Part shown: positions 3,064-45,030 of the stretch, in pieces
How positions within the stretch are numbered: the first letter of the stretch is position 1
Layout: each line of letters starts with the position of its first letter
Program-made: the position numbers and the translations under genes
The notes under the pieces: model-generated
The model's input: only the letters and a program-made list of their open reading frames with translations
Database searches by the model: none
What the model was told of the DNA's origin: nothing
DNA from: a virus
IMG/VR virus record: IMGVR_UViG_3300011442_000006
Coordinates: 1-45,030 of that record
Reading direction: 5' to 3' (one strand)
Length of the DNA stretch: 45,030 nt

Positions 3064-4278
3064 ATGTCTGAAACGAAAGATCTTGAGATTATTACCCCAC
3101 GGGCCGGCCGCGAAGTGGTCAAGGCCGACGACTTCATGCCGCTGCTATCGGTTGAGCAAGCAGTCGACCGTAAGAGCAAGATCAACCAGTTTATCGGGCA
3201 GGTTCTCAAAGAAGGCGACGATTACGGCAAGATGCCAGGGGACACGCGGAAAGACGCGAAGAAGGTCCTGCTGAAACCCGGCGCCGAGAAGCTCTGCTCG
3301 ATCTTTGGGCTCGCCCCGCAATACCTCGAAGACAAGATCACCGAGGACTGGACCGGCAGGGATCACGGCGGGGAACCACTGTTCTACTACGCCTACCGCT
3401 GTCAACTGATGCGGGGCGACCGGTTCATGGGTGAGGCGATCGGTTCGGCGAACTCATGGGAAATCAAGTATCGCTACCGCTGGGTGACGGAAGACACCGC
3501 CGAGGCGGCTGGATTTGAACCGGACGCGTTAACAAAGCGGGGCAGCCGGGCGACTAAATTCGAGCCTGATTTCGCCATCGCGAAGCGGGAGAGCTCGGGG
3601 CAGTATGGACACCCGGCCGAGTATTGGGATCAATTCACCGCGGCGGCCGGCGCGAAGCGGGTCACCGATAAGCAGCTTGGAACGCGGAAGTTTAACGGCT
3701 GGGAGATCTCGCTCGATCAGACACAATACCGGATACCCAATCCGGACGTCGCCGACGTGATCAACACGCTCCAGAAGATGGCCCAGAAGCGGGCACTGGT
3801 CGCGGCCGTCCTGGTGGTAACGAACTGCTCGGACGCGTTCACGCAAGACCTTGAAGACGGACTACCGGGCGAGGACGGGTCGAATGGTGGTACATCGACG
3901 CCGGCCGCCCACGGAGCCCAGCAGCAGACGTTACCGGCCGAGGAGCCCCCGTTGCAGCTTCCCGAGGAATTGGCGGCCCTGTTCGGCCCCAACGCCCCGG
4001 CAAAGGGGACAACAACCGCGTTCGCTATCGTCAAACGCGAACTGATGGAAGCTTTGCCGCAGAATGGCGAAGACGAGTATCGGCGCATTCTGGCGGTGAA
4101 CGGGATCAAGGACAAGGGCAACAAGATCGAGGACGTCAAAAAGGCGTTGATTCAGGGCTGGACGCTCGCCCGGTCAGTGAAGGCAAAGACCGGCTGGAAG
4201 CCGATACCGCTTACTGATCCGGCTGGCCAAGATAGTCACGAGAGCGAGAGCGACGACTGGGGGGAGGGCCGGGAATGA
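3064..4278 (+). CDS. putative single-strand annealing / recombination protein (Erf/Rad52-like, tentative; 404 aa)
   Basis: RBS AGGAGG. LLKPGAEKLCSIFGL and LQKMAQKRALVAAVL resemble conserved SSAP blocks recalled from memory. It sits upstream of a Gp157-like gene and nucleases. Confidence 0.4.
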   Translation: MSETKDLEIITPRAGREVVKADDFMPLLSVEQAVDRKSKINQFIGQVLKEGDDYGKMPGDTRKDAKKVLLKPGAEKLCSIFGLAPQYLEDKITEDWTGRDHGGEPLFYYAYRCQLMRGDRFMGEAIGSANSWEIKYRYRWVTEDTAEAAGFEPDALTKRGSRATKFEPDFAIAKRESSGQYGHPAEYWDQFTAAAGAKRVTDKQLGTRKFNGWEISLDQTQYRIPNPDVADVINTLQKMAQKRALVAAVLVVTNCSDAFTQDLEDGLPGEDGSNGGTSTPAAHGAQQQTLPAEEPPLQLPEELAALFGPNAPAKGTTTAFAIVKRELMEALPQNGEDEYRRILAVNGIKDKGNKIEDVKKALIQGWTLARSVKAKTGWKPIPLTDPAGQDSHESESDDWGEGRE

Positions 4279-4733
4279 CCGGTAAAGCGCTACTCGGACA
4301 GATACTGGCGATAGAGCCCGATGCCGCTGGGTGGCGTAAGCTGCCCAGTGGCAACTGGGTGAAGCTCGGCGACGGGGTGACGCTCGGCAACGAGGTGAAG
4401 CTCGGCGACGGGGTGACGCTCGGCAACTGGGTGAAGCTCGGCAACGAGGTGAAGCTCGGCGACGGGGTGACGCTCGGCAACTGGGTGAAGCTCGGCGACG
4501 AGGTGACGCTCGGCGACGAGGTGACGGAGGCCATCTATCTGGGGCACTGTGAAGGTTACCCGAAAACCATCGCGAGCGTGAAAGGCGTAGCTTACATATC
4601 GGCGGGATGTCGGTGGTTTACATTGACGGCGGCGCTGAAACACTGGGAAAGCCGTGATGATCGGCCAATCACAAGGGCGGTCATGCTGGCGGCGGTGGAA
4701 ATCGCACGGATTAAGGGCTGGACTCACGAATAA
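4275..4733 (+). CDS. hexapeptide-repeat protein (152 aa) with conserved C-terminal domain
   Basis: About ten consecutive LG(D/N)xV(K/T) hexapeptides encoded by an 18-nt tandem repeat. The C-terminal block is ISAGCRWFTLTAALKHWESR. The ATGA start overlaps the upstream stop. Confidence 0.7.
   Translation: MTGKALLGQILAIEPDAAGWRKLPSGNWVKLGDGVTLGNEVKLGDGVTLGNWVKLGNEVKLGDGVTLGNWVKLGDEVTLGDEVTEAIYLGHCEGYPKTIASVKGVAYISAGCRWFTLTAALKHWESRDDRPITRAVMLAAVEIARIKGWTHE
4350..4526 (+). repeat. 18-nt (36-nt super-unit) tandem repeat, ~9.8 copies, coding
   Basis: ggcaactgggtgaagctc / ggcgacggggtgacgctc / ggcaacgaggtgaagctc units are repeated almost without substitutions. Confidence 0.9.
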
Positions 4734-4780
4734 GGCGCAAATACCCTTGTAATCGAGTGGCGCCTTAGTCGCATACTCGG

Positions 4781-4975
4781 ATGATGATGACGACGACACG
4801 GGCCCAGAGAGCTTTTGCGATACAGGTGCTGGCAGAGGCACAGCGAAGATTGAAGGCATGCGATATATCAATGGCCCTGGAGCCGGTCCAGGTTGCCGCG
4901 CTGATAGATTTTACAGAGGAGGAGTATGGGGCTAACGAAAACGACGCGAGAGAAACTGGAAGACGCCTTTTTTGA
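4781..4975 (+). CDS. hypothetical protein (64 aa), uncertain
   Basis: ORF track. It overlaps the next, better supported gene by 50 nt. Confidence 0.35.
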   Translation: MMMTTTRAQRAFAIQVLAEAQRRLKACDISMALEPVQVAALIDFTEEEYGANENDARETGRRLF

Positions 4976-5246
4976 CTTATCGGTAGTCGACCAGGCGGGA
5001 CTGCTTGATTCGTTGAACACGCTACACCGGATGAAGAAACGGCAGCCGGGGGAGACTCAGGCGGTACGGAGGGCGCATCGATTCGGCGCAAGTACGGTGT
5101 GTTCCGTGTGCGGGCTCGATGGCGACCAGGCGGTTCCCGGCAAGTGTCCGGGGCGGCCGGGACAACCAGAGCAACAGGAGTCGTTACTCGACGGGCTCAA
5201 CTCCGGTGTGGGTCCGCGGCAGGGCCCAAATGGAGATGAAGGATGA
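4926..5246 (+). CDS. hypothetical protein (106 aa)
   Basis: Strong RBS GAGGAGGAG directly upstream of ATG 4926. Confidence 0.6.
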   Translation: MGLTKTTREKLEDAFFDLSVVDQAGLLDSLNTLHRMKKRQPGETQAVRRAHRFGASTVCSVCGLDGDQAVPGKCPGRPGQPEQQESLLDGLNSGVGPRQGPNGDEG

Positions 5247-9750: not shown

Positions 9751-10011
9751 ATGGCTTGGATGCATGAGACGCAGGCCTGCCTCGTTACCGGCACTATCCG
9801 GTTGCTCGAATTTCACCACGTGCGAAAGCATGCCGGCGACCAGAAAGACGACACACGCGGGGTAATGCTCACGGTTGGGTATCATCGGATCGGCGTCGAC
9901 GCGGTCGAAACGATCGGCGATCGCCGGTTTCAGGAGAAGTTCGACGTGGACTTCGAGGCGGAAATCAAGCGGTGTAACGCGGAGTATGTGGCGCAGGGTG
10001 GGAAGCTGTGA
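9751..10011 (+). CDS. DUF968/Ref-like HNH-fold protein (tentative; 86 aa from first ATG)
   Basis: YMAWMHETQACLVTG...EFHHVRKHAG...D resembles the DUF968 pattern. The frame is open and family-like (RKRRPGPPRRGRVVNPKY) back to 9628 without a canonical start. Confidence 0.4.
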   Translation: MAWMHETQACLVTGTIRLLEFHHVRKHAGDQKDDTRGVMLTVGYHRIGVDAVETIGDRRFQEKFDVDFEAEIKRCNAEYVAQGGKL

Positions 10012-10253
10012 TCGACGAAGCTCTGGCGAAGAAGTTACGGCTGCAAGGGATCAGTAAGCACGCGCGGCCGGCATTCTTCCAGGGACATCGAATCGACCGC
10101 AACGCGAACTTTACCCACCATTGTTGCTGGCTCTGTGGACGTTGGGAGCCGTGCGAGATGGAGCAATGCGACCATGCGGTATGTGTTCGAATCCTTCCGT
10201 GTTGTGACCCGAACGTGATCGAACGGCAGGGTAAGCGGAAGGCGAAGCGATGA
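10008..10253 (+). CDS. Cys/His-rich small protein (81 aa), Com-like position upstream of the Mom-like gene
   Basis: HHCCWLCGRWEPCEMEQCDHAVCVRILPCC. The GTGA overlap is at the 5' end and the ATGA overlap with the Mom-like gene is at the 3' end. Confidence 0.5.
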   Translation: MIDEALAKKLRLQGISKHARPAFFQGHRIDRNANFTHHCCWLCGRWEPCEMEQCDHAVCVRILPCCDPNVIERQGKRKAKR

Positions 10254-10825
10254 ATCAGGGGAATCTTTTCGGGATCGACGGCATGAGCACGGGCGAGCTA
10301 CTGGCTGAGAATCACTACCTTGGTCAATCGCAGCGAGGGCAGACGTATCGAGATGAACACGGCGTCATGATGTTCGCGAATCCGTCGTCTCGCCGGCTAC
10401 CTCAACACTCATGGCTCGAACTGGTGCGATGGTGTATCGTCGACCGGGAGAAAAACGCCGGCTCGCGGCAGTGGGGCAAGGTGCGACTGTGGCTGTTGCG
10501 AGAGTTTCCAGAGGTAACGACAATCGTTAGTTACAGCGATCCCGCAGCGGGACATACGGGCTCGCTATACCGGGCTTGCAACTGGCTTTGGGCGCCGACA
10601 TGGCATCGGTTGCGACCACCGCCGAGCGGAAACGGTTCATGGACGGACGGTAAGCGGCAGGAGGTAAAAGACCGCTGGGTTTTCCCTCTGAGAAAATCGT
10701 CGGAGCGGGCGTCTATTCTGGCGATCAACGATGAAGGCGTTCGGGCAGCGATGCCGTGGGCGGAGTTTCAGGAGAAGCGGGGCGGCGATTATAAACGGTG
10801 GCTCGCAGGGGTCACAAGACCGTGA
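10250..10825 (+). CDS. Mom-like GNAT-fold DNA-modification enzyme candidate (191 aa)
   Basis: NHYLG...LELVRWCI...NAGSRQWG...IVSYSDPAAGHTGSLYRACNWLW parallels Mu Mom blocks HYSRS / LELNRM / NAES / LLSFSDGKEGNVGYIYQATNWLY. The Mu sequence is recalled from memory. Confidence 0.6.
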   Translation: MNQGNLFGIDGMSTGELLAENHYLGQSQRGQTYRDEHGVMMFANPSSRRLPQHSWLELVRWCIVDREKNAGSRQWGKVRLWLLREFPEVTTIVSYSDPAAGHTGSLYRACNWLWAPTWHRLRPPPSGNGSWTDGKRQEVKDRWVFPLRKSSERASILAINDEGVRAAMPWAEFQEKRGGDYKRWLAGVTRP

Positions 10826-31305: not shown

Positions 31306-31689
31306 ATGCCCGTCTATTCGCTCTATCCGATCTATCGCCCGCAATTCGTCGCGAACGCAGCGGCCAAGCTCGTCTTAGCGACCGGCGCGGCCGGGAACGT
31401 CGTTCCTGCCGGCTACAACTACAAGATCGACGTATTCCATGTCATCAACGTGACAGCGGCGCCGGTGACTCTCAAGATCTGGCGGGTTCCTTCCGGGGGG
31501 GCGTCCGGTAACGGTAATATCGTAGTTCCGGTTACCGTATTGGTTCCGGTGGCGTCTCAGACCTTCCCGCAGTTCGATGTAACGAGCCTATGGGGCGCGG
31601 TGTTGACTGAGGGCGAATGGATCGAGGCGTTGGCGGGCTCGGCGAGCGCGTTGGTCGCAGAAGCAGACGGCGTGATCGTCCAGATTTAG
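31306..31689 (+). CDS. hypothetical virion protein (127 aa)
   Basis: ORF track. RBS AAAGGAAA, beta-rich. Confidence 0.55.
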   Translation: MPVYSLYPIYRPQFVANAAAKLVLATGAAGNVVPAGYNYKIDVFHVINVTAAPVTLKIWRVPSGGASGNGNIVVPVTVLVPVASQTFPQFDVTSLWGAVLTEGEWIEALAGSASALVAEADGVIVQI

Positions 31690-31691
31690 CA

Positions 31692-32186
31692 ATGATTGAT
31701 AAGTTCACGGTCCAAGAAAAGTTTCCAGATGTTGACGAAATGGCCAGGCTCTGGGGATGGATACAGGAATGTCCAGAAGCGAACATAGACGACGCCGGCC
31801 CCAAGAGCATCGACGACTTTTACGTCGTCATGAAGGCAAAGGCGCAACGCGGTGTAGTTCTGTTCGTCGTTTCGACCGACCTGTTTGGCCCGATCGGGTG
31901 TTTCGGTCTCGAGGCATTCGGTAACGGCCTGGTCAAGTTCGCCGGGCTCTGTTTTGCCCCTTACGTGCGGGGCACCGGTCTCGCTCAGCGATCGGTTACC
32001 GGTGTTCTCGAAAGACTATCGCCGAGGAAGGTAGTAGTCGAGTTTTTCGAGACGAATAAGCGGGCGGTCAGCTTCTTCGAAGATCTTGGCTTCACGTTTG
32101 AGGGCCGGTTTACTGATGAGACGATCATCAAGGGCGAGCCGGTAGCGGTAGTGCGGTGGGTCAAGTTTCCGAAGAGGGAGGAGTAA
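31692..32186 (+). CDS. GNAT-family N-acetyltransferase (164 aa)
   Basis: Motif A-like FAPYVRGTGLAQRSVTGVLERL and NKRAVSFFEDLGFTFEG. ATG lies 2 nt after the upstream TAG. Confidence 0.7.
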   Translation: MIDKFTVQEKFPDVDEMARLWGWIQECPEANIDDAGPKSIDDFYVVMKAKAQRGVVLFVVSTDLFGPIGCFGLEAFGNGLVKFAGLCFAPYVRGTGLAQRSVTGVLERLSPRKVVVEFFETNKRAVSFFEDLGFTFEGRFTDETIIKGEPVAVVRWVKFPKREE

Positions 32187-32190
32187 ACGT

Positions 32191-33027
32191 ATGCCGTTCG
32201 GTGGCCTTCTTACGCTCGGTTTAATCGGCGGCGGCTCGTCGCTTTTTAGTGGCATATTGGGCTCTAAGGCGTCAGGGAAAGCTTCTCAGCAGCAAGGGGC
32301 CGCGGCTGACAAAGCGATCGACTTTCAAAAGGAAATCTACGGCGACCAGCGGCGAGACCAGCAACCCTATCAGGACCTCGGTACGGCGGCGATCGCTCAA
32401 CTGATGAAGCGTATCGGGATGGGAACGCCAGACTTTCAGACGCCAGACGATTTCAAGGGGCCAGACGATTTCACGGCGCCCTCTCTCGAGGAGGCCCGTA
32501 ACTCGCCTGGTTATCAGTTCGCAAAGCAAGAGGGAGAATCAAGCATAGTCAAGGGCCAGGCGGCGGCCGGCGGGGCGTTTACGGGCGGAACGTTGCGGGC
32601 TCTCGATTCGTTCGGGACCGGGCTTGCTGATTCGACCTATTCGAACGTCTTCAACCGGTCGCTATCGACGTACAAGCAAAACCTCGACAAAAACCTGGGG
32701 GTGTTTAATACCAACCTGAATAAGAACCTGGGCGGGTATCAGGCGAACCTGGCCGGCGACGCTCAGGAGTTTTCGCAACTACTCGCCCCGGCTCAACTGG
32801 GCGAGAACGCGACGGCGCAGATAGGAAACGTCGGTTCCCATGCGGCGACCAGTATTGCAGACTTAATGACGGGCAAGGGCAACGCCCAGGCGGCCGGCAC
32901 GGTCGGAAGCGCGAACGCATGGGGCGGGGCATTGAGCGGTCTCTCTCAGACGGCCAATGATACATTCCTACTCTCTGAGTTCATGAAGAGGAATAAGCAG
33001 CAAGCGCCCAAACTCGCGGCAGGGTAG
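32191..33027 (+). CDS. internal virion / ejection-type protein (278 aa)
   Basis: RBS GGGAGGAG. Gly-rich hydrophobic N-terminus. SPGYQFAKQEGESSIVKGQAAAGGAFTGGTLRAL is a block common in podovirus internal proteins. Confidence 0.55.
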   Translation: MPFGGLLTLGLIGGGSSLFSGILGSKASGKASQQQGAAADKAIDFQKEIYGDQRRDQQPYQDLGTAAIAQLMKRIGMGTPDFQTPDDFKGPDDFTAPSLEEARNSPGYQFAKQEGESSIVKGQAAAGGAFTGGTLRALDSFGTGLADSTYSNVFNRSLSTYKQNLDKNLGVFNTNLNKNLGGYQANLAGDAQEFSQLLAPAQLGENATAQIGNVGSHAATSIADLMTGKGNAQAAGTVGSANAWGGALSGLSQTANDTFLLSEFMKRNKQQAPKLAAG

Positions 33028-38742: not shown

Positions 38743-41700
38743 ATGAAAACTTTAGTATTATTCTTCCTCTCCTATCCTCTTTTCGCGAATTACTCGGGCG
38801 GGATTTTCGTCGCGCTCGCTACTGGGAAAACAACCTACACGTTGACCAACAGCGGTCCTCAGGGCGGCGTCGAACAGCGGACGGCTGGTCTTGCGGCCTT
38901 CGGCGGGAGCTTCCAGCGAATCGGTGTCACGATCTCGATGGACCACATCTCGCTGCAAAATACGACCTCCTACACATCTTGCGCCGACCCATGCGGAGTT
39001 GGAGGGACGGCGGCGATGATGACGATCAATCGCCAGAAGGGTATCGTCTATGCGCGTTACGAGAAGCTCGACTCTTCTGGGAATCAACTTTTCCCGCGTC
39101 AGTATCTCGATGCCGGGTCTGCTTATGACAACAATACCTGCGCACCGCTCGATACATTTCCTCACATCTCCTATTCCACCGTCACCACGTCGCCGATGCC
39201 AATGCCGCTTGTCATGGTTTGGCACGATTGCTATGTAGGCCAGCTTCAGTTTCCACTCGTCAGCGGGCATGCGTTCGCAAGCCAGCGCTTATACGTTAGG
39301 ATTAGCAATCCTGGGTATAGCAATCCTAATCGACCGGATGGGAAATTCAGTTTCCAGATCAATGGAGGCGCATGGGTTCCATTGACGAACGCTGTCTGTA
39401 CTGGAGTAGACGCCTCGGCTGACTACGGAGGTATTGGTAGCTTCGATCAGACGCGGGAATTTACCTGCTCAATATCCGATGGGTCAATCCTAGTTGGAGA
39501 CACCACGATAACCATTGGAATTCGATTTAACGGTACAGATGGTATCACTTCGGGCGGGCGAATCCTGGCGATCAACATCATCGAAGCGAATGTGGCTTGC
39601 TCTTCGATCACTACTACTACCGGATCGCCCGCCTCTTCGGTTATTACGTGCGCAGGTCATGGATTCACGAACGGTAACGATTTTGTTGTTCTGCACGCCC
39701 CGGATATCTGGATGATGTACCATGGCCTGCGGCACTCGACGGCGGCGACATCCAGTACACTAACGTTTCGCCCATGTAATACCGGGAATCCATGGGATAC
39801 TGCATGCGTTCCGGCGAATGAGACAGTTGCGCCACCAGTCAGCACTGACCCAAGTGGCAATGCGATTACAGCAACGCGAGTGATGTATGTCGCCCGAGCT
39901 GCTATCGCGGCCTCTTCTTTCGTGCAGATAGACCCTACAACATGGACGGCCCCAGGCGGGGGTGACGCAACACGTGGAGGCAAGATATTCCGTACGGGTA
40001 ACGCATCCGGCACAACGGGCCAGTTCGATCAATTGATGAGCCCCAATACGCCATTCCTGAACGACAAATTTCACGTAGCCACGTGCGGCGGTCCCAATGG
40101 TTGTCACACCTCCGGCAATTCCACCGGCGTTCCATCGGGATCGGATTTGAAACGCTTCAACTACGACAATGGATCTATTGGGGTCCGCACGGAGTTTCAC
40201 GGCTTCTCGGAGCAGGACGGGCTCGATATCGAGGCTTATATTCGTGGGCTGAGCGTCACGGTCCCGGTCAACGGGCGTCCTTGGAATCCGCCTATGCAAC
40301 CATGCCCTGGCCTCTCCTCTGGTTCGACTGAGGATTTCTGGGCTGGTGGGGCTAGGGACTGTGTTCTAGAGTACGGGTACGCTGATTGGATCAAATACGC
40401 CGCGCCGGGGGGTGATAAATCTAAGTGGGTTTGGACGGAGAAGTTTGAGACTCGCGATGTGCCTACTATTTACCCGTTTCAAGATTGGAACAAAATGCTT
40501 CCGACACTTCACCCAGCGGATGCTTATCCTAACGGCGATTTTCTTTCCTCAACCCCCTTCACAACGCACCGCGACATCATGGACAATATGACGGAGAATA
40601 ACTTCTCGTCGTTTCAGTCCTACAACTATGGGCAGACCTGTGGCCCATATGTAACCTGGATGAACTCTCAGTACGTGTTCAATGGAACGACAGCCGGGGC
40701 CAACGGAACCGATACAGCAGCGGGTAATTGGTTTCCCGGCAATCTTGCCCAGATTCGTTACAGCGCTATGCAGTACTACTTCATCCGGCAGTACGATATC
40801 TCCGTGGATAAGCAGACCTTTCAGTTTGAAGGTCAACGTAATAATGCTGTTAATGGAGCATCCAATAATGTCAATTGGCCACACGCTACGGGATTTTCTG
40901 GTTTTGGGCTGTTCACCTGTATGGCCCCTCATAAAATCACCACAGCGGAACCTGCGAACCTGCGTAAGACGTGGCCCAATGATGGCTTGATAAAATCTTT
41001 CGATGCAACATCTAACTGGGCTTACGTAGGTAATACGGTCCTGTACTGCGGTGATGGATGGGATTCGGCTAATAGTCCATGTGACAACGCATATTTGAAC
41101 ACCTACACCGTGCGTATGGGTCAATATCGTCCTGGAGGGTACTTGACAACCTTCTTAGGATCGATGGTAGTGCCTCAGCAGGGGTCAGCAAGCAAATATT
41201 TCTTTCAATATCAGTTCAACGGGGCATTTACTACAAGCGACGGCACCCACTTAGTTTGGAGTTCCGGCGATCATTTTGATCCTTCCATGACTGGTCAGGT
41301 AGGGCTTTGGAACGGAGTAGCCGGAACAGCTACATATGTCGATTCTACGCACCTGACGACATCCGCGAGCACAACTACAGGGACTTATGCCATTAATAGC
41401 GGTGGGGCAGGTACGGATTATACCTCGGTCTGGAGTAAAACTCTGACTTATGATTTTCGCTATACCTACCCATGGTTCAGTTCGGCGGCATGGCTGCAAA
41501 ATACGATTGACTACTTAGGCAACATCAACGCGATTACCAGCGCCCACACCGTGGATTATTGGAACCGGGTGTTTACCAACTCTGGGGATGTGAGCCCGAA
41601 CGCCTCCGCTGCCTGGGGATTATCAAGCGGTGGCACAGCCCCAACGACGGCGATGCTTCTTACATTGTTCAAGGTTTGGTGTAATGGCGACTCGACCTGC

Positions 41701-42156
41701 AACACAGCCCTGACCACATACCTGGATTGGGCAAAGAGCATCACCCAGGCTGGATGGGCAGCGCATAATTTTGACAACGATATTGCAGCGGCGTCGAATG
41801 GGGCGGGAACTACCAATGGCGCGGCGACAACTACGGGAGACTTGACGGCGGGCAGCAATCGAACTATCACATTTGACACGATGGGCGGGCATACCGGCTG
41901 TCCTGCTGCGGCAAGTGCGACAACTGGCGTTCAGTTCACATTCTGGGGAGGAACTGGTAGTCCAGAATCCACTCGGCCTGTCGGGGGGACCTGCGCCTCT
42001 GCGGGCTCAGCCGGTACTCTCGTTTTCAATCTACGCTACAACCATACTGGGGCATGGAAGATCAGTTACGGCCTCGATATCGGTATCCCGCCTAATTATG
42101 ACTTCAATGGTCTTGGGACTGAGCCGAACTGGTGGGCTGGCTCGAACATGCTTTAA
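38743..42156 (+). CDS. giant protein with signal-peptide-like N-terminus, unknown function (1137 aa), lower-GC
   Basis: MKTLVLFFLSYPLFA|NYSGG. No family recognised. Aromatic, Asn/Thr/Gly-rich with many Cys. Confidence 0.65.
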   Translation: MKTLVLFFLSYPLFANYSGGIFVALATGKTTYTLTNSGPQGGVEQRTAGLAAFGGSFQRIGVTISMDHISLQNTTSYTSCADPCGVGGTAAMMTINRQKGIVYARYEKLDSSGNQLFPRQYLDAGSAYDNNTCAPLDTFPHISYSTVTTSPMPMPLVMVWHDCYVGQLQFPLVSGHAFASQRLYVRISNPGYSNPNRPDGKFSFQINGGAWVPLTNAVCTGVDASADYGGIGSFDQTREFTCSISDGSILVGDTTITIGIRFNGTDGITSGGRILAINIIEANVACSSITTTTGSPASSVITCAGHGFTNGNDFVVLHAPDIWMMYHGLRHSTAATSSTLTFRPCNTGNPWDTACVPANETVAPPVSTDPSGNAITATRVMYVARAAIAASSFVQIDPTTWTAPGGGDATRGGKIFRTGNASGTTGQFDQLMSPNTPFLNDKFHVATCGGPNGCHTSGNSTGVPSGSDLKRFNYDNGSIGVRTEFHGFSEQDGLDIEAYIRGLSVTVPVNGRPWNPPMQPCPGLSSGSTEDFWAGGARDCVLEYGYADWIKYAAPGGDKSKWVWTEKFETRDVPTIYPFQDWNKMLPTLHPADAYPNGDFLSSTPFTTHRDIMDNMTENNFSSFQSYNYGQTCGPYVTWMNSQYVFNGTTAGANGTDTAAGNWFPGNLAQIRYSAMQYYFIRQYDISVDKQTFQFEGQRNNAVNGASNNVNWPHATGFSGFGLFTCMAPHKITTAEPANLRKTWPNDGLIKSFDATSNWAYVGNTVLYCGDGWDSANSPCDNAYLNTYTVRMGQYRPGGYLTTFLGSMVVPQQGSASKYFFQYQFNGAFTTSDGTHLVWSSGDHFDPSMTGQVGLWNGVAGTATYVDSTHLTTSASTTTGTYAINSGGAGTDYTSVWSKTLTYDFRYTYPWFSSAAWLQNTIDYLGNINAITSAHTVDYWNRVFTNSGDVSPNASAAWGLSSGGTAPTTAMLLTLFKVWCNGDSTCNTALTTYLDWAKSITQAGWAAHNFDNDIAAASNGAGTTNGAATTTGDLTAGSNRTITFDTMGGHTGCPAAASATTGVQFTFWGGTGSPESTRPVGGTCASAGSAGTLVFNLRYNHTGAWKISYGLDIGIPPNYDFNGLGTEPNWWAGSNML

Positions 42157-42164
42157 GTTTCCCA

Positions 42165-42368
42165 CTAGTCCCTAAGGCCACATTGGCCGCAAACGAATCT
42201 GAGTGATGGATCAAGCCGCGGGGCTTGCCATTGACACCGTGGGCAGGTGGTCGCAATTCTTCGTATCACCAACCAAAATCTATAGATGTCGACTATGGTA
42301 ACGGCTCCCAGCAGTATCCAAAAGAAGTTCGGTTGTGGAATGTGGGAGAGTTGCGCATTGTTGTACAT
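42165..42368 (-). CDS. small membrane zinc-ribbon protein (67 aa), uncertain
   Basis: TM segment FFWILLGAVTIVDIYRFWLVI followed by CPRC-x14-CGQC. Convergent with the giant gene. GTG 42383 is an alternative start. Confidence 0.4.
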   Translation of the reverse strand: MYNNAQLSHIPQPNFFWILLGAVTIVDIYRFWLVIRRIATTCPRCQWQAPRLDPSLRFVCGQCGLRD

Positions 42369-42386
42369 GCTGATATCATACACAAC

Positions 42387-42623
42387 ATGAAAAAAATAGC
42401 AATACTGCTGGGTGCGGGAATGGTACTAGCAGGGTGCAAAAGGGACCCGTACTTGGAGTGGCATCGGTTGCAGGCCGAGATCCAGGAAATCAACAATCGC
42501 GAGTCGATCAACTGCAAAAAGCAGGGCAAGGAATGGGGCATGGACCGTAACGGGTTCGGGCCGATATGCGTAACGGTCCAGACTCCTCCCGCTTCCACTC
42601 CAGCCCCGGAGGCGAAGAAGTGA
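42387..42623 (+). CDS. lipoprotein (78 aa)
   Basis: MKKIAILLGAGMVLAG|C lipobox. Pro/Thr-rich C-terminus. Confidence 0.65.
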   Translation: MKKIAILLGAGMVLAGCKRDPYLEWHRLQAEIQEINNRESINCKKQGKEWGMDRNGFGPICVTVQTPPASTPAPEAKK

Positions 42624-42865
42624 GCGCTTTGGCTACCACTAAGGGGCGGCACAGACACAACTGGCCACGGCAGTCAATAGATTTCGCTGATTCACAAACT
42701 ATAACCGTTGCCCCGTTTCGATCGAGTAAATTTCTAGCACTCGAAGTTGCGGTTCAAAAGGCTGAGCAGTATCGCGACCGCGAGTCCCATCAGGGCATGG
42801 TTCACGTCCTGATGGAGGAAGGTAAGCCTTATGACAAATGGATTCCGTATAACCGAGAATCATGA
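42620..42865 (+). CDS. hypothetical protein (81 aa)
   Basis: GTG 42620 overlaps the lipoprotein stop (GTGA), matching the coupling pattern used throughout this genome. Confidence 0.4.
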   Translation: MSALATTKGRHRHNWPRQSIDFADSQTITVAPFRSSKFLALEVAVQKAEQYRDRESHQGMVHVLMEEGKPYDKWIPYNRES

Positions 42866-43026
42866 TATCGTAGGACCGTTCCTTCAAGAAGGGGCTGGTA
42901 GCGACTAGCGGCGGTATCCAGTCCACCGCACGCGGCGATCATGTCACCATGAGAACCCGACACGAAGCCCCGGCCCTTTCCCGAACCTTCCTGATATAAT
43001 CACTCTGATTCAGTTAACATGTACTT

Positions 43027-43671
43027 GTGAACGCCCGAGCGAAACGCTTGATCGCCACCACTATATCTACGGAGATGTCAGTCTCCGCTAAACGATCGTT
43101 TACTTTCCTGATGACGCCCCCGCCTAGCTGGACGTTCGGCATCGCCACGCTTGGGGCGTTTTTCCTTTCCCTTCCTCAGTCCTACCGGCTGCTGTTGACG
43201 GTCATGCTGTTCAGCTTGGCAAGTAGCGGTCTCGTTGCATTGAAAAAGCACCGCATTAGCGCCTGGGATGCGTTCTGGAGCGTCGTGAGGGTCTTCGCTG
43301 AGGTGGGCCTGCTGTACATCACGCACTTAGTCTTTGACGGTTTCTCGAATCATTTCGGCGTGCCGATGGCGTCGACGGTGACGGCGATCGTGGCTCTAAT
43401 CTTTACGGGAATCGAGTTTCTGTCATTCACGGAAGATTGCAAGAACCTCGGTGTACCTGTTCCGAAGTTAGTCACCTCCCGAATGAAACAGTTCATGGAC
43501 AAGCTCGAGGCGGCCGGCGAAATGGAGCTCCAGACCCAAACGACAAAACTGTCACCAGCCGGAAACGTGTTAAGCGTTGAGCAGAGCGTTACCGTGTTGC
43601 GGCCGACCGGGCCGGCCCCAGAGGCCCCGATAGTGATCGCTCCCGACATAGTCGGCAAAAAGGAAGTGTAG
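43027..43671 (+). CDS. holin (phage_holin_4-like; 214 aa from GTG)
   Basis: 3-4 TM segments and FTGIEFLSFTEDCKNLGVPVPKLV, resembling the E..SI.EN....G.P.P signature of that holin family. A TGATATAAT box lies at 42992-43000. An alternative ATG is at 43075. Confidence 0.6.
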   Translation: MNARAKRLIATTISTEMSVSAKRSFTFLMTPPPSWTFGIATLGAFFLSLPQSYRLLLTVMLFSLASSGLVALKKHRISAWDAFWSVVRVFAEVGLLYITHLVFDGFSNHFGVPMASTVTAIVALIFTGIEFLSFTEDCKNLGVPVPKLVTSRMKQFMDKLEAAGEMELQTQTTKLSPAGNVLSVEQSVTVLRPTGPAPEAPIVIAPDIVGKKEV

Positions 43672-43673
43672 CC

Positions 43674-43886
43674 ATGTCGCCAGTTGTCAACTTTATCTTT
43701 ATCGCTCTTGTGATAGCCGTCATTTTGGGAGCTTTGAACAAGTTCCCGGAATTGCTCGACGCCACCACGGTTTCAGTGATTCGCTTTGTGCTGCTGGTGG
43801 TTCTCGGTATCCTGTTTATCGACGTGTTGCTCTGGATGTTCACCGGACAGCACATCACCCACTACACGGGCGGCGTCTACCGGTAA
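43674..43886 (+). CDS. small two-TM membrane protein (70 aa), holin/antiholin-like
   Basis: Two hydrophobic helices. ATG lies 2 nt after the holin stop. Confidence 0.55.
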   Translation: MSPVVNFIFIALVIAVILGALNKFPELLDATTVSVIRFVLLVVLGILFIDVLLWMFTGQHITHYTGGVYR

Positions 43887-43903
43887 AAGGCGCACCTTGG
43901 CAG

Positions 43904-44119
43904 TTGGCGTGCTACGATTGTGTCATGTTCGACCAAATCCGCGACGTTGCCGGCTCGCTAGGGATCAGGGACGGGCAACTTGTCAAACTTGCACGCGATA
44001 TTGCCCACGATGGCGCATTGCTCGATCTTGAGTACATGCGGGAAGCCGATGCGTTAGAACTGTTGGCTTTTCTTCGAAAAGCCCGGCTTTATGAAGCGCG
44101 TGAATTGATCCCAGCCTGA
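43904..44119 (+). CDS. hypothetical protein (71 aa)
   Basis: ORF track. Confidence 0.5.
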   Translation: MACYDCVMFDQIRDVAGSLGIRDGQLVKLARDIAHDGALLDLEYMREADALELLAFLRKARLYEARELIPA

Positions 44120-44123
44120 TAGA

Positions 44124-44495
44124 ATGGCCGTCATGTGGATATGGCGGCAGCGGTTGGGCGTTCTCTACCATAACGACGTCAAGCAGGGCGAGGGCTACAG
44201 CGGGGCCGGGGTCGACAAGAACCAGCCGGCGAGCCAAGAACTTAAGAACAAGGGCCCCATTCCGGCCGGCGTCTACGGGATCGGACCGCCACACAGGACG
44301 GACACGCACGGGGATCATGTCCTATCGCTTACTCCGTGGAAGCAAAATTACATGTTCGGCCGTGATGCGTTCCTGATCCATGGCGACTCGATCGCCGACC
44401 CTGGAACCGCGAGTGAGGGATGCGTCATTCTGTCTCGGGCTCTGCGAGAGCAAATCTCGAACAGTGGCGACACGGTACTTGTTGTACTCGCGTAA
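44124..44495 (+). CDS. DUF2778 / Tlde1-like L,D-transpeptidase-fold enzyme (123 aa); endolysin candidate
   Basis: GEGYSGAGVDKNQP...NKGPIPAGVYGIG...LTP...FGRDAFLIHGDS...ASEGCVILSRALREQISNSGDTVLVV matches the DUF2778 consensus, including the catalytic H...SxGC. The second ATG at 44133 is the leaderless start, 7 nt after TAGAAT. Confidence 0.8.
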   Translation: MAVMWIWRQRLGVLYHNDVKQGEGYSGAGVDKNQPASQELKNKGPIPAGVYGIGPPHRTDTHGDHVLSLTPWKQNYMFGRDAFLIHGDSIADPGTASEGCVILSRALREQISNSGDTVLVVLA

Positions 44496-44522: not shown

Positions 44523-45030
44523 GTGACGTTCGGCTCGCTCTTTAGTGGGATCGGTGGAATGGACTTAGGCCTTGAGCGGGCAGGGCTCGAGGTACGCTGG
44601 CAAGTCGAAATAGACCCCTACTGCAATACCATCCTAGAAAAGCATTGGCCCGAGGTGAAACGCTATGGAGACATCGAAGAAGCCCGCGGCTCCGAGCTCG
44701 AGCCCGTTGACGTCCTTGCCGGGGGGTTCCCTTGTGTTGACGTTAGCCGGGTTGGACTACGAGCCGGCATCGGCGCCGAGCGATCCGGCCTTTGGTCGCA
44801 GTTCTTTCGATTGGTCGGTGAGTTACGACCCGGTTTCGTGCTCGTGGAAAACGTCCCAGGTTTGCTTGACGGGGGACTCAGCAGAGTTCTCGGAGACCTG
44901 GCCACGGGCGGGTATGATGCTGAGTGGCGTTGCCTTTCGGCTGCACAATTTGGACTTCCCCACGTTCGGGAGCGGGTGTTCATTGTTGCCTACGCCAGGG
45001 GCTCAGCCGCACGGGGTCGCTGGGTCGAAC
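44523..45030 (+). CDS. DNA (cytosine-5)-methyltransferase, 5' portion (continues at nt 124 of the window)
   Basis: My translation gives motif I FSGIGG (44541-44558), motif IV GGFPCVDVS (44721-44747, Val in place of the usual Gln), motif VI ENVPGLL (44847-44867), and the start of motif VIII. Confidence 0.85.
   Translation, partial: MTFGSLFSGIGGMDLGLERAGLEVRWQVEIDPYCNTILEKHWPEVKRYGDIEEARGSELEPVDVLAGGFPCVDVSRVGLRAGIGAERSGLWSQFFRLVGELRPGFVLVENVPGLLDGGLSRVLGDLATGGYDAEWRCLSAAQFGLPHVRERVFIVAYARGSAARGRWVE
44908..45030. repeat. Terminal overlap, exact copy of 1-123
   Basis: See the first feature. Confidence 0.9.

Follow-up and report, generated by a model that had tools for sequence, protein, structure and literature searches.

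How does a phage that encodes no recognizable endolysin open the wall of its host? The window analyzed here, the whole 45,030-nucleotide stretch of viral DNA, raises this question, as an earlier note on it described a DUF2778/Tlde1 protein beside a holin and proposed that it serves as the endolysin or as a holin-released toxin. Endolysins fall into few chemistries (glycosidases, amidases and a small number of endopeptidases), and these enzymes are in development as antibacterials. If the Tlde1-like protein, a free-standing cysteine enzyme of about 120 aa with the L,D-transpeptidase fold, is the sole endolysin, this list would gain both a chemistry and a scissile bond; if it only trims peptide stems, the true endolysin of this phage would be of an unrecognized type.

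The ends of the window overlap exactly over 123 bp, which supports the earlier view that this phage genome is complete; without the overlap it measures 44,907 bp, and its portal and coat proteins are P22-like. Pfam and PHROGs searches of its ~57 ORFs revealed no other muralytic domain at E ≤ 0.01, and specifically no match to a lysozyme, amidase, transglycosylase or peptidase, nor did phmmer searches of the genome with a GH108 and an M15_3 endolysin as queries yield a match. The claim that no other muralytic motif is present, which a canonical domain in another ORF would have overturned, thus holds at the profile level. About 35 ORFs of the 45-kb genome carry no annotation, so that an unrecognizable lysin could lie among them. 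Neither a spanin equivalent nor a T6SS-related Pfam match was found in the genome, scans for tRNAs and Rfam families found none, and promoter and terminator scans gave matches at chance level only.

Organization of the lysis cassette

All ORFs that the earlier note had listed for this region are present, at the same positions and on the + strand. The genes for the holin, a protein with two transmembrane segments (2-TM protein), a short ORF and the Tlde1-like enzyme are separated by gaps of 2, 38 and 4 nt and form the end of the late operon. The enzyme gene (44124–44495, + strand) thus lies 453 nt 3' of the holin gene within one gene string. Past the initial 120 nt of the holin gene, no terminator-like site was detected inside the cassette, and predicted co-transcription of enzyme and holin is supported. 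The downstream limit of the cassette is a C5 DNA methyltransferase gene (start at 44559–45030, + strand), which crosses the contig ends and continues at 124–668; translated across the junction, it matches PHROG 363, and its 338-aa product in a public assembly carries PF00145 DNA_methylase.

The holin (+ strand) comprises 214 aa when read from GTG (43027–43671) and 207 aa from the TTG used in public assemblies (43048–43671). It matches PF05105 Phage_holin_4_1 (E = 2.4e-8; 34.5 bits versus a cut-off of 22.2) and PHROG 199 ("holin"). Hydropathy analysis gave three segments above threshold and a weaker one at residues 36–54, and the protein has a C-terminal soluble tail of ~80 aa. Its description as a 4-TM holin with a signature motif therefore stands as regards the family, with three to four hydrophobic segments; the motif is also present, in the form E..S..E.....G.P.P, with five rather than four residues preceding the glycine. 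The 2-TM mini-protein noted before (43674–43886, + strand; 70 aa) was confirmed by hydropathy to have two strongly hydrophobic helices, with Kyte-Doolittle values >2.7. Its gene alone in the cassette has a clear Shine-Dalgarno sequence (upstream sequence AAAAGGAAG), and the protein probably acts as a second holin, as an antiholin or as an accessory to the holin. At four other loci (L019, L021, L026 and L041), Tlde1-like genes are immediately preceded by similar small 2-TM ORFs. A hidden Markov model from five seeds found only the seeds and the sister phage (L003), and we therefore claim no conserved 2-TM partner.

The remaining small ORFs of the region are probably not core lysis genes, as neither is conserved in the sister phage. 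The short ORF, which encodes 71 aa from TTG (43904–44119, + strand) as described earlier, starts in the public assembly at ATG 43925 (43925–44119; 64 aa). Its product is acidic and soluble and has no Pfam or PHROG family; the coding score from our own ORF caller was weak, and a non-homologous 66-aa ORF occupies this position in the sister phage. The 78-aa lipoprotein (42387–42623, + strand; MKKIAILLGAGMVLAGC; lipobox LAGC with Cys17, read by eye), likewise without a Pfam or PHROGs family, is missing from the sister phage, where the tail-fiber gene differs too. Rather than to the lysis region, in which it had been included, it probably belongs to a variable tail-fiber module, and it is a candidate for receptor blocking or superinfection exclusion. 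We also considered this lipoprotein as a spanin and rejected it on account of a missing i-spanin partner, a mature part that is not Pro-rich and its absence from the sister phage. The non-coding stretch 5' of the holin gene (42878–43026, + strand) is partly conserved between the two phages in blastn alignments (70% identity over 42878–42982; 81% from 42986 on) and is a candidate control region of the cassette; one weak promoter-like match at 42831–42860 does not exceed chance expectation.

Family, fold and catalytic residues of the enzyme

The 123-aa protein is a bona fide Tlde1_dom/L,D-transpeptidase-fold protein. The Pfam search proposed in the earlier note confirmed the DUF2778/Tlde1 assignment: residues 23–109 match PF10908 Tlde1_dom (formerly DUF2778) at profile positions 4–102 of 120, with 56.8 bits versus a cut-off of 30.1 (E = 3.9e-15), and the same family is precomputed on 25 of 25 close homologues. 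Over its full length, the protein matches phrog_24118 (E = 2.6e-33; label "unknown function"); a match to DUF5675 was sub-threshold. An AF2 model (pLDDT 92.2, pTM 0.86) was compared with the PDB by Foldseek, and the top 47 matches were all L,D-transpeptidase-fold proteins. The best TM-score, 0.68, was to Tlde1a (7uo8; 0.50 when normalized to Tlde1a), followed by values of 0.56–0.64 to the cellular L,D-carboxypeptidases Pgp2 (0.64), Bd1075 and Csd6. At its N-terminus, the sequence can be aligned to the consensus MW.Y.Q.TG of the family, and residues 5–23 form three confidently modeled β-strands of the fold; the protein contains no hydrophobic segment, signal peptide or SAR domain. The putative catalytic residues are His86 (codon 44379–44381) and Cys100 (codon 44421–44423; motif HGDSIADPGTASEGC). 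The predicted signature, H86...S97-E98-G99-C100, fits the pattern H-x(n)-(S/T)-x-G-C, a His/Cys motif defined for Tlde1 (bioRxiv 10.1101/2020.02.18.954545); across 26 sequences, neither H86 nor C100 varies, and H86, S97, G99 and C100 are invariant in 24–26 homologues.

Tlde1a (Tae5), a T6SS effector of Salmonella Typhimurium (PDB 7UO3/7UO8), shares with the phage protein the Pfam family, the fold and the His...(S/T)xGC signature, and its target compartment, the periplasm, and its substrate, peptidoglycan, are those that we propose for the phage protein. However, Tlde1a has 173 aa, ~50 of which have no counterpart in the phage protein, and its catalytic His and Cys are 10 positions apart (121 to 131) rather than 14 (86 to 100). 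In Tlde1a, a capping subdomain (β6–7, α1 and η2) lies over the active-site cleft (PMC9638812); the shorter length (by 50 aa) and the TM-score of 0.50 suggest that the modeled phage protein may lack this element. Sequence searches of the PDB with phmmer and with the family profile did not retrieve Tlde1a and gave only a weak match to a YkuD motif, so that the link to Tlde1a rests on Pfam and fold. By sequence, the phage enzyme family is distant from Tlde1a, its only characterized relative. As the phage-family profile misses 7uo8, the activity of Tlde1a cannot safely be transferred to it in either direction.

Position of the family in viral genomes

The sister phage keeps the holin (85% identity), the 2-TM protein (86%) and the Tlde1-like enzyme, with 82–86% identity overall, and no other gene of the conserved cassette encodes a product as large as an enzyme. 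We examined the context of other holin homologues in a large protein database, as tblastn found no match to the holin in GenBank phages and an exact-peptide scan none in IMG/VR. The closest of them (53% identity) sits beside a 137-aa Peptidase_M15_3 gene. M15-family endolysins (Peptidase_M15_3/4), small globular enzymes that depend on a holin and occur in phages with Gram-negative hosts, resemble the phage protein in their size of ~120–140 aa, the lack of a signal sequence and the position beside a holin. They are, however, zinc metallopeptidases of another fold that cut L-Ala-D-Glu or D-Ala-mDAP bonds, whereas the phage protein is a predicted cysteine acyl-enzyme whose predicted bond is at the L-center of mDAP3. 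A similar exchange is seen among small ssDNA phages: in the amoyvirus vB_RpoMi-Mini, an M15 peptidase is encoded between the capsid and Rep genes (PMC9865509), and Citromicrobium phage vB_Cib_ssDNA_P1, a 4.4-kb microvirus with six genes and no other enzyme candidate, carries a homologue of the 123-aa protein in that slot. Four small contigs with relatives (L047, L085, L088 and L010) were also considered as microviruses and rejected, as they show no similarity to the Citromicrobium capsid or Rep.

The arrangement is not rare: the family is common in phages, with relatives on 263 IMG/VR contigs and among 58 GenBank phage records, and the PhaLP "YkuD" class of enzymatically active domains (10 entries) includes one with PF10908 (PMC8310338). 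Around the Tlde1-like gene at 71 non-identical IMG/VR loci, small membrane proteins account for 30% of genes within three positions versus 11% beyond four (Fisher p = 1.3e-9) and for 43% at position +1; genes were taken from our own, approximate ORF caller and membrane proteins were assigned by a crude hydropathy rule. Immunity-like genes, as seen in cellular loci, could account for part of the excess of single-pass membrane proteins at +1. Two loci, L019 and L020, are textbook S-R-Rz/Rz1 cassettes with the Tlde1-like enzyme as R: two 2-TM proteins and the enzyme are followed by an Rz-like i-spanin, within whose gene a Pro-rich lipoprotein is encoded. They serve as two clear examples rather than as spanin enrichment, since a screen for Pro-rich o-spanins 3' of the gene was positive at 2 of 68 loci versus one in the opposite-strand control. 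Among 150 neighbors, the families listed (25 of the 40 matched Pfam families) include GTA_holin_3TM (two members), Rz and DUF2514, and SLT and M15_4 only once each.

Taken together, the conserved sister cassette, the holin paired with an M15 peptidase, the S-R-Rz/Rz1 loci and the membrane-protein enrichment at the 71 loci argue that the 123-aa protein occupies the endolysin slot. As a soluble protein that lacks a signal peptide or SAR domain and is encoded in a holin cassette, it shows the traits of a canonical holin-dependent endolysin. We therefore favor, with moderate confidence, the reading that it is a non-canonical endolysin of this phage, and the sole one found. The earlier proposal of a Tlde1-type endolysin is thus upheld as to identity, holin linkage, lack of a canonical endolysin and comparative context, while the function is one that we infer. 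A role as sole endolysin is not general to the family, because two cultured members, Erwinia phage Y3 and Burkholderia phage JC1, have a canonical endolysin as well. In phage Y3, gp197, annotated as "endolysin", lies 2.7 kb from the family member gp191, which has no membrane-protein neighbors; in JC1, a complete holin-lysozyme-Rz/Rz1 module lies far from the DUF2778 gene. Besides JC1, jumbo phages carry the family alongside a canonical endolysin.

Proposed mechanism and alternative roles

As an endolysin, the enzyme would be made late in infection as a soluble cytoplasmic protein from the transcript that also encodes the holin, and it would reach the wall once the Phage_holin_4_1 holin, possibly aided by the 2-TM protein of 70 aa, has opened the inner membrane. 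There, the Cys100/His86 dyad would attack the carbonyl of the L-center of diaminopimelate at stem position 3, the chemistry of L,D-transpeptidases and Tlde1. Lysis would require L,D-endopeptidase action, with D-Ala (4-3 cross-link) or mDAP (3-3 cross-link) as the leaving group, and such hydrolysis at cross-links, if sufficient for lysis, would uncouple the glycan strands. Tlde1a trims stems rather than cutting cross-links: its substrates are free tetrapeptide stems, on which it works as an L,D-carboxypeptidase and exchanges D-amino acids, and it can even make 3-3 cross-links (PMC9638812). Periplasmic Tlde1 in E. coli led to loss of envelope integrity and a lower proportion of cross-linked muropeptides (bioRxiv 10.1101/2020.02.18.954545), but a Tlde1a-type activity alone would not dissolve the sacculus within seconds. 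Among phage proteins with PF10908, our literature search found none with a published assay.

Precedents for such a use of the fold come from two sides. First, L,D-transpeptidase-fold (MEROPS C82-type) domains occur in proteins annotated or predicted as lysins, namely the entries of the rare PhaLP "YkuD" class and "C82-like" DUF5675 candidates (bioRxiv 10.64898/2026.04.11.717860). These are mostly domains of larger modular lysins, whereas the phage protein is free-standing and appears to be the sole wall-active enzyme of its complete genome; they are database classifications, for which we found no biochemical demonstration in the literature. Second, the fold acts as a hydrolase in Csd6 of H. 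pylori, Pgp2 of C. jejuni, Bd1075 of Bdellovibrio and LdtF/DpaA of E. coli. Unlike the phage protein, these are multidomain, secreted housekeeping or shape enzymes, none of which is phage-encoded or holin-linked. LdtF/DpaA is an E. coli L,D-transpeptidase paralogue that cuts tethers between the outer membrane and peptidoglycan.

The last example illustrates an alternative that we regard as unlikely, though still worth weighing: the protein could be an accessory peptidoglycan remodeler that trims or exchanges stems or cuts such tethers, weakening the wall or freeing the outer membrane, while the true endolysin goes unrecognized elsewhere in the genome, for instance among the ~35 unannotated ORFs. 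Stem trimming and exchange are what the Tlde1a biochemistry would predict, Y3 and JC1 pair the family with canonical endolysins, and one relative (P0059) is fused to a Phage_lysozyme domain, as for a helper activity. Moreover, as no spanin is recognizable in the genome, an outer-membrane-releasing role would fill a gap. On the other hand, two profile libraries yielded no second muralytic candidate, and the conserved cassette and the six-gene microvirus offer no other enzyme. In addition, in L019 and L020 no enzyme other than the Tlde1-like one is encoded between holin-like genes and Rz/Rz1, and canonical lysins are rare among the families listed for the 150 neighbors.

Less probable still is that the protein is a toxin or moron with no part in the lysis of this phage. 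Like Tlde1 effectors, it would harm competing bacteria, or else superinfecting phages, either on release at lysis or from within lysogens, and its gene would adjoin the holin gene only incidentally. This idea draws on cellular relatives with 45–50% identity, which reside in effector/immunity-like pairs: on Terriglobia chromosomes, the gene after the Tlde1-like one encodes a conserved single-pass membrane protein of ~200 aa, and in Xenorhabdus and Paraburkholderia it encodes a membrane protein or lipoprotein of 130–180 aa. Viral and cellular sequences are also intermixed by nearest neighbor, and one relative (P0138) is fused to RHS. Yet the phage gene has as neighbors the holin, the 2-TM protein, the 64-aa ORF and the DNA methylase; unlike Tlde1a, with its T6SS context and Tldi1-type immunity gene, it has no cognate immunity gene (Tldi1/DUF2195-type) and no T6SS, Rhs or PAAR context beside it, and the sister phage lacks an immunity-like gene as well. 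The 123-aa protein has no secretion signal or delivery domain, the outer membrane of other Gram-negative cells is impassable to a small exogenous enzyme, and a moron would not be expected to lie consistently between holin-like genes and spanin genes when the phages are unrelated. The holin-released toxin suggested in the earlier note thus finds no specific support at this locus.

Under the endolysin reading, the family appears to be a widespread endolysin domain common to phages and cellular effector/immunity modules, with exchange between the two. We tentatively put forward, as a possibility somewhat short of an even prospect, that the free-standing phage Tlde1-like proteins (phrog_24118) are distinct, widespread cysteine endolysins that lyse cells as L,D-endopeptidases by cutting after the mDAP L-center of cross-linked stems, are used by dsDNA phages and a minimal ssDNA microvirus, and share recent ancestry with effector/immunity modules of Acidobacteriota and Proteobacteria. 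If so, the same enzyme would be a lysin or a weapon depending on its neighbors, and the lysis enzymes of phages would be related by descent to peptidoglycan toxins of the T6SS type. A family labeled "unknown" on hundreds of viral contigs would gain a function, and some microviruses without a known lysis gene a candidate. Besides the lysozyme fusion, a relative is fused to PG_binding_1 (P0087); these two fusions reinforce the link to peptidoglycan, as do L,D-transpeptidase-fold domains inside annotated phage endolysins and tail lysins, but the fusions do not show phage usage. In IMG/VR, P0059 had no match and P0087 matched only via its PG_binding part; P0087 carries a signal peptide and is therefore probably a cellular enzyme.

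Finally, a virion-associated enzyme that opens the wall locally for DNA ejection is very improbable: L,D-transpeptidase-fold domains do occur inside tape-measure and tail-lysozyme proteins of other phages, and one homologue (L015) lies within a P22-like structural block, adjoining an SU10-type adaptor gene, but the gene studied here follows the tail-fiber and holin genes rather than lying among the ejection-protein genes at 32–36 kb, its free-standing product has no virion-attachment domain, and the L015 homologue has small membrane proteins on either side, so that it resembles a lysis cassette inserted into the block.

The Tlde1-like enzyme and its cassette

The 123-aa protein encoded at 44124-44495, which the earlier note had assigned to the DUF2778/Tlde1 family, indeed matches PF10908 (Tlde1_dom), a Pfam model of the L,D-transpeptidase fold, with 56.8 bits versus a cut-off of 30.1. 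A match to phrog_24118 likewise spans the entire protein (E = 2.6e-33); PHROGs gives this family the function label "unknown". In an alignment of the enzyme with 25 homologues, Y25, G27, G44, P45, P47, G49, L69, R80, F83, H86, G87, A96, S97, G99 and C100 are invariant. H86 and C100, the putative catalytic residues, are the counterparts of His and Cys in the L,D-transpeptidase motif H-x(n)-(S/T)xGC known from Tlde1/Tae5 (bioRxiv 10.1101/2020.02.18.954545).

A confident AlphaFold2 model based on the homologue alignment (pLDDT 92.2, pTM 0.86) matched, among solved structures, exclusively proteins of the L,D-transpeptidase fold down to rank 47. The highest TM-score was obtained with the Salmonella type VI secretion effector Tlde1a (PDB 7uo8; 0.68), while the L,D-carboxypeptidases Pgp2, Bd1075 and Csd6 scored 0.64, 0.60 and 0.56, respectively. 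Its relationship to Tlde1a is nevertheless remote: the enzyme has 50 residues fewer, normalisation to Tlde1a lowers the TM-score to 0.50, and a profile of the phage family run against PDB sequences missed Tlde1a, giving only a weak match to the catalytic motif in a standard YkuD protein. The enzyme may lack the capping subdomain seen in Tlde1a (PMC9638812). Residues 1-23 form three well-modelled β-strands of the fold, and the protein has no hydrophobic segment. The enzyme therefore has neither a signal peptide nor a signal-anchor-release domain, and needs something else to reach the wall.

The ORFs previously noticed between 42165 and 44495 are all present, and public gene calls contain the same set. 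The enzyme gene is preceded by genes for a holin (43027/43048-43671; 214/207 aa), a 70-aa two-transmembrane (2-TM) protein (43674-43886) and a short ORF (43904 or 43925-44119), with intergenic gaps of 2, 38 and 4 nt along this series. The holin, proposed from its sequence to span the membrane four times, matches Phage_holin_4_1 (34.5 bits; cut-off, 22.2) and shows three clear hydrophobic segments plus a weaker one; likewise, the suspected 2-TM mini-protein, which starts 2 nt past the holin stop codon, has two very hydrophobic helices. A Shine-Dalgarno sequence (AGGAAG) is seen only at the 2-TM gene and none is recognisable upstream of 42387, 43027, 43925 or 44124; this scarcity may reflect translation-initiation habits of the phage's host. 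Nothing equivalent to a spanin could be recognised in the window.

A sister phage (L003), 80% identical and assembled as a 44.8-kb contig from a different metagenome, carries the same series of holin, 70-aa 2-TM protein, short ORF, Tlde1-like gene and DNA methylase, with 85% identity for the holin, 86% for the 2-TM protein and 82% for the enzyme. The short ORF (43904-44119) is replaced there by an unrelated ORF of similar size (9787-9987), with the DNA on both sides about 80% identical between the two phages, so that this position looks like a small hypervariable slot within the lysis cassette. From this comparison, the conserved unit consists of the holin, the 2-TM protein and the enzyme.

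The 78-aa lipoprotein encoded upstream of the holin (42387-42623), which had been counted as part of the lysis region, does not belong to this unit. It directly follows a 1137-aa tail-fibre-like gene (38743-42156) and is missing from the sister phage, in which the adjoining tail-fibre gene also differs; the lipoprotein thus seems to travel with the variable tail fibre. Receptor-blocking lipoproteins are encoded beside receptor-binding genes in other phages, such as T5. By analogy, the lipoprotein is more likely a superinfection-exclusion (receptor-blocking) factor than a spanin or lysis gene.

The proposed endolysin slot in this and other phages

The earlier note had seen no other muralytic motif in the genome, and at the level of profiles this holds: when about 57 ORFs of at least 60 aa were scanned against Pfam, and most of them also against PHROGs, none of the families of lysozymes, transglycosylases, amidases or peptidoglycan peptidases was hit at E <= 0.01. 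Two endolysins used as phmmer queries, one of GH108 type (gp197 of Erwinia phage Y3) and one of M15_3 type, had no match in the six-frame translation either. Roughly 35 of the ORFs, however, carry no annotation at all.

Relatives of the holin are few; beyond the sister phage, the nearest is 53% identical and found on 16 contigs. Its cassette (L184, 4197-6621) has the gene order Pro-rich lipoprotein (134 aa), 151-aa protein, Peptidase_M15_3 protein (137 aa), 72-aa protein and holin. Holins of one lineage thus accompany a small endolysin of canonical type there and the Tlde1-like enzyme in the window phage. The L184 cassette adjoins a gene for a giant multidomain protein (helicase/FtsK-gamma; >3,400 aa).

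A tblastn search of GenBank phages also located the family in the Citromicrobium microvirus vB_Cib_ssDNA_P1 (4,360 nt), where gpB (MG214764.1, 1328-1738; 38% identity, E = 8e-16), an ORF left unannotated in the original description (PMC6030365), separates the capsid gene from the Rep gene. The capsid-Rep slot of a related amoyvirus, vB_RpoMi-Mini, is occupied by a horizontally acquired M15-family peptidase (PMC9865509). The microvirus slot is a second case of M15 and Tlde1-like enzymes in one place and, by analogy, gpB is likely the lysis enzyme of a minimal ssDNA phage.

Relatives of the enzyme are encoded on 263 IMG/VR contigs. We compared gene neighbourhoods in 71 non-identical loci among the best 80 of these, with genes called by a self-trained codon model and small membrane proteins defined as having 250 aa or less and one or more hydrophobic segments. 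Such proteins make up 30% of the genes up to three positions from the enzyme versus 11% at more than four (Fisher p = 1.3e-9) and 43% of the genes at position +1; 53 of the 71 loci have one within two genes of the enzyme. One locus (L019) reads tail fibre, 101-aa 2-TM protein, 62-aa 2-TM protein, enzyme and a 163-aa protein whose N-terminus is a membrane anchor and whose Ala/Lys/Gln-rich body looks like a coiled coil. The gene for this last protein holds an out-of-frame embedded ORF (MLLTLAIASC-APVPVAVQCPPYPAPP...) for an Rz1-type lipoprotein; a second locus (L020) encodes the homologous o-spanin. Both are clear, textbook examples of the S-R-Rz/Rz1 arrangement, in which the Tlde1-like family stands in the place of R.

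We also scanned against Pfam 150 neighbouring proteins of 105-360 aa, encoded at most three genes away in 62 loci, one per sequence cluster. Of 40 families matched, 15 with a single member each fall outside the list; the 25 families listed include one SLT and one Peptidase_M15_4, indicating that canonical endolysins rarely adjoin the enzyme at this distance, as well as GTA_holin_3TM (two members), Rz (Phage_lysis) and DUF2514. Together with the microvirus and the S-R-Rz/Rz1 cassettes, this comparative pattern makes it credible that the family constitutes an endolysin class.

Possible roles of the enzyme

The earlier note had proposed that a Tlde1-type enzyme serves as the phage endolysin or as a holin-released toxin. 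Its first suggestion is partly supported, for an endolysin with a non-canonical putative catalytic domain: the holin cassette, the lack of another detected wall domain and the slot occupied in other phages speak for it, while observations on Y3, JC1 and Tlde1a (see below) speak against it. What the analysis shows is the fold with its conserved dyad, a protein free of export signals, its place in the cassette and the comparative pattern. A holin-released endolysin is the best-supported reading, and one that we regard as reasonably probable. The enzyme would accumulate in the cytoplasm and exit through holin lesions; Cys100 would then be acylated by the L-centre carbonyl of mDAP3, and the acyl-enzyme would be hydrolysed. 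The same mDAP3 acyl group takes part in three linkages, to free D-Ala4, to a D-Ala4 joined to an adjacent stem (4-3 cross-link) and to the D-centre amine of an adjacent mDAP (3-3 cross-link). Provided that the leaving-group pocket tolerates a bulky group, both 4-3 and 3-3 cross-links could be cut, as we infer from the chemistry of the fold.

Several observations caution against a simple endolysin reading. Among GenBank phage records with the family, 57 of 58 are cultured dsDNA jumbo phages of Erwinia, Dickeya and Yersinia. In Erwinia phage Y3 (L002, 2717-6369), gp191, annotated as a DUF2778 protein, is encoded 2.7 kb from the annotated GH108-type endolysin gp197, five genes downstream of it and without membrane-protein neighbours; the role of the gene in jumbo phages may differ from that in small phages. 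In Burkholderia phage JC1, a DUF2778 gene that is less closely related stands beside the terminase, and a full holin-holin-lysozyme-Rz-Rz1 module lies elsewhere (PMC9144972). Tlde1a, the one family member studied, trims stems (mDAP3-D-Ala4, free tetrapeptides), exchanges D-amino acids and, as a minor activity, forms 3-3 cross-links (bioRxiv 10.1101/2020.02.18.954545; PMC9638812). Stem trimming or exchange alone does not break the peptidoglycan net. Upon periplasmic expression in E. coli, envelope integrity is nevertheless lost and the share of cross-linked muropeptides is lower (bioRxiv 10.1101/2020.02.18.954545). The enzyme might thus have an accessory role, editing the wall or cutting tethers beside an unrecognised endolysin. 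The separate endolysins of Y3 and JC1 and the unannotated window ORFs fit such a role, the profile searches and the S-R-Rz/Rz1-like cassettes do not favour it, and we consider it rather unlikely.

A toxin or moron role is suggested by the cellular relatives. The family is large, with 3,827 representatives of sequence clusters found at E <= 1e-3, of which 292 remain at E <= 1e-30. Its close members include one secreted PG_binding_1 + Tlde1 protein, one fusion of Tlde1 with Phage_lysozyme, one with RHS repeats, and one DUF5675 + Tlde1 protein. The nearest relatives in reference genomes (up to 58% identity) are mostly from Acidobacteriota, class Terriglobia, with others in Acetobacteraceae, Paraburkholderia, Noviherbaspirillum and Xenorhabdus. 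Many Terriglobia chromosomes share the arrangement PolX-like gene (~580 aa), Tlde1-like gene, ~200-aa membrane protein and lactonase (around 4000-5100 in the Acidobacteriota MAG loci L110, L111, L115, L116, L119, L122, L124, L139 and L171). The Tlde1-like protein there has a hydrophilic N-terminal extension of ~25 residues and no signal peptide, the ~200-aa protein is conserved and single-pass with a Pro-rich N-terminus, and no secretion system is obvious near these pairs. In proteobacterial copies, a 130-180-aa membrane protein or lipoprotein is encoded next downstream. From their gene order, these cellular arrangements look like effector/immunity pairs, whereas phage copies are without an immunity-like partner, and a toxin or moron role appears improbable for the window enzyme, even though viral and cellular sequences interleave by nearest neighbour. 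A virion enzyme is the least probable reading: in one locus (L015) the gene lies inside a structural block, yet even there it is flanked by small membrane proteins.

In the literature searched, we found no study of a PF10908/Tlde1-like protein as a phage lysin. The L,D-transpeptidase fold in phage lytic proteins has already been catalogued, both by annotation and by predicted structure. The PhaLP table groups ten entries, PF10908 among them, into a "YkuD" class of enzymatically active domains (PMC8310338), an older survey lists three YkuD lysins (PMC5017753), and a gut phageome survey reports one multidomain lysin with YkuD. A 2026 preprint applies the term "C82-like" to lysin candidates that contain DUF5675, solely on the basis of structure (bioRxiv 10.64898/2026.04.11.717860). 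Among predicted viral structures, domains of this fold occur within an annotated Nodularia phage endolysin, Synechococcus phage GH19 and tail-lysozyme proteins, and a tape-measure protein. As annotation databases already hint at it, the finding will not astonish a specialist. The window adds a clean case, a complete genome with a free-standing family member beside a holin and nothing else wall-active detectable; at stake is what a widespread family of phage proteins does, and perhaps a new chemistry of lysis.

The phage genome and its possible host

The window ends in an exact 123-bp overlap (1-123 = 44908-45030), leaving 44,907 bp of unique sequence, and the record thus represents a circularly closed or terminally redundant genome, in agreement with the claim that it is complete. 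Nearly every gene lies on the + strand. Pfam identified a Terminase_3 large subunit, a P22-type portal and a P22-type coat protein, and PHROGs added a scaffold, a head-closure protein and a DNA-ejection protein; together with the overlap, these genes show that the window represents a P22-like, podovirus-type phage in full. No tRNA genes or Rfam families were found in the window. Independent assemblies from three public samples contain this genome, in whole or in part. Among cellular sequences, the one that matches the enzyme best (L104) comes from an Acidobacteria bin, where its surroundings resemble a phage; with the G+C content of 57%, this gives a hint, but only a hint, of an acidobacterial host.

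The next gene after the enzyme encodes a 338-aa C5 DNA methyltransferase (PF00145) that runs across the contig junction (44559-45030, then 124-668). A 191-aa protein encoded just upstream of the packaging genes (10250-10825) matches the Mom family (PF25680; E = 9.8e-13) and, with the methylase, points to DNA modification. Among the genes for virion and ejection proteins, a GNAT-type acetyltransferase gene (31617-32186; weak Pfam matches, E about 1e-4) is directly followed by a P22 gp7-like "DNA ejection" gene (32191-33027).
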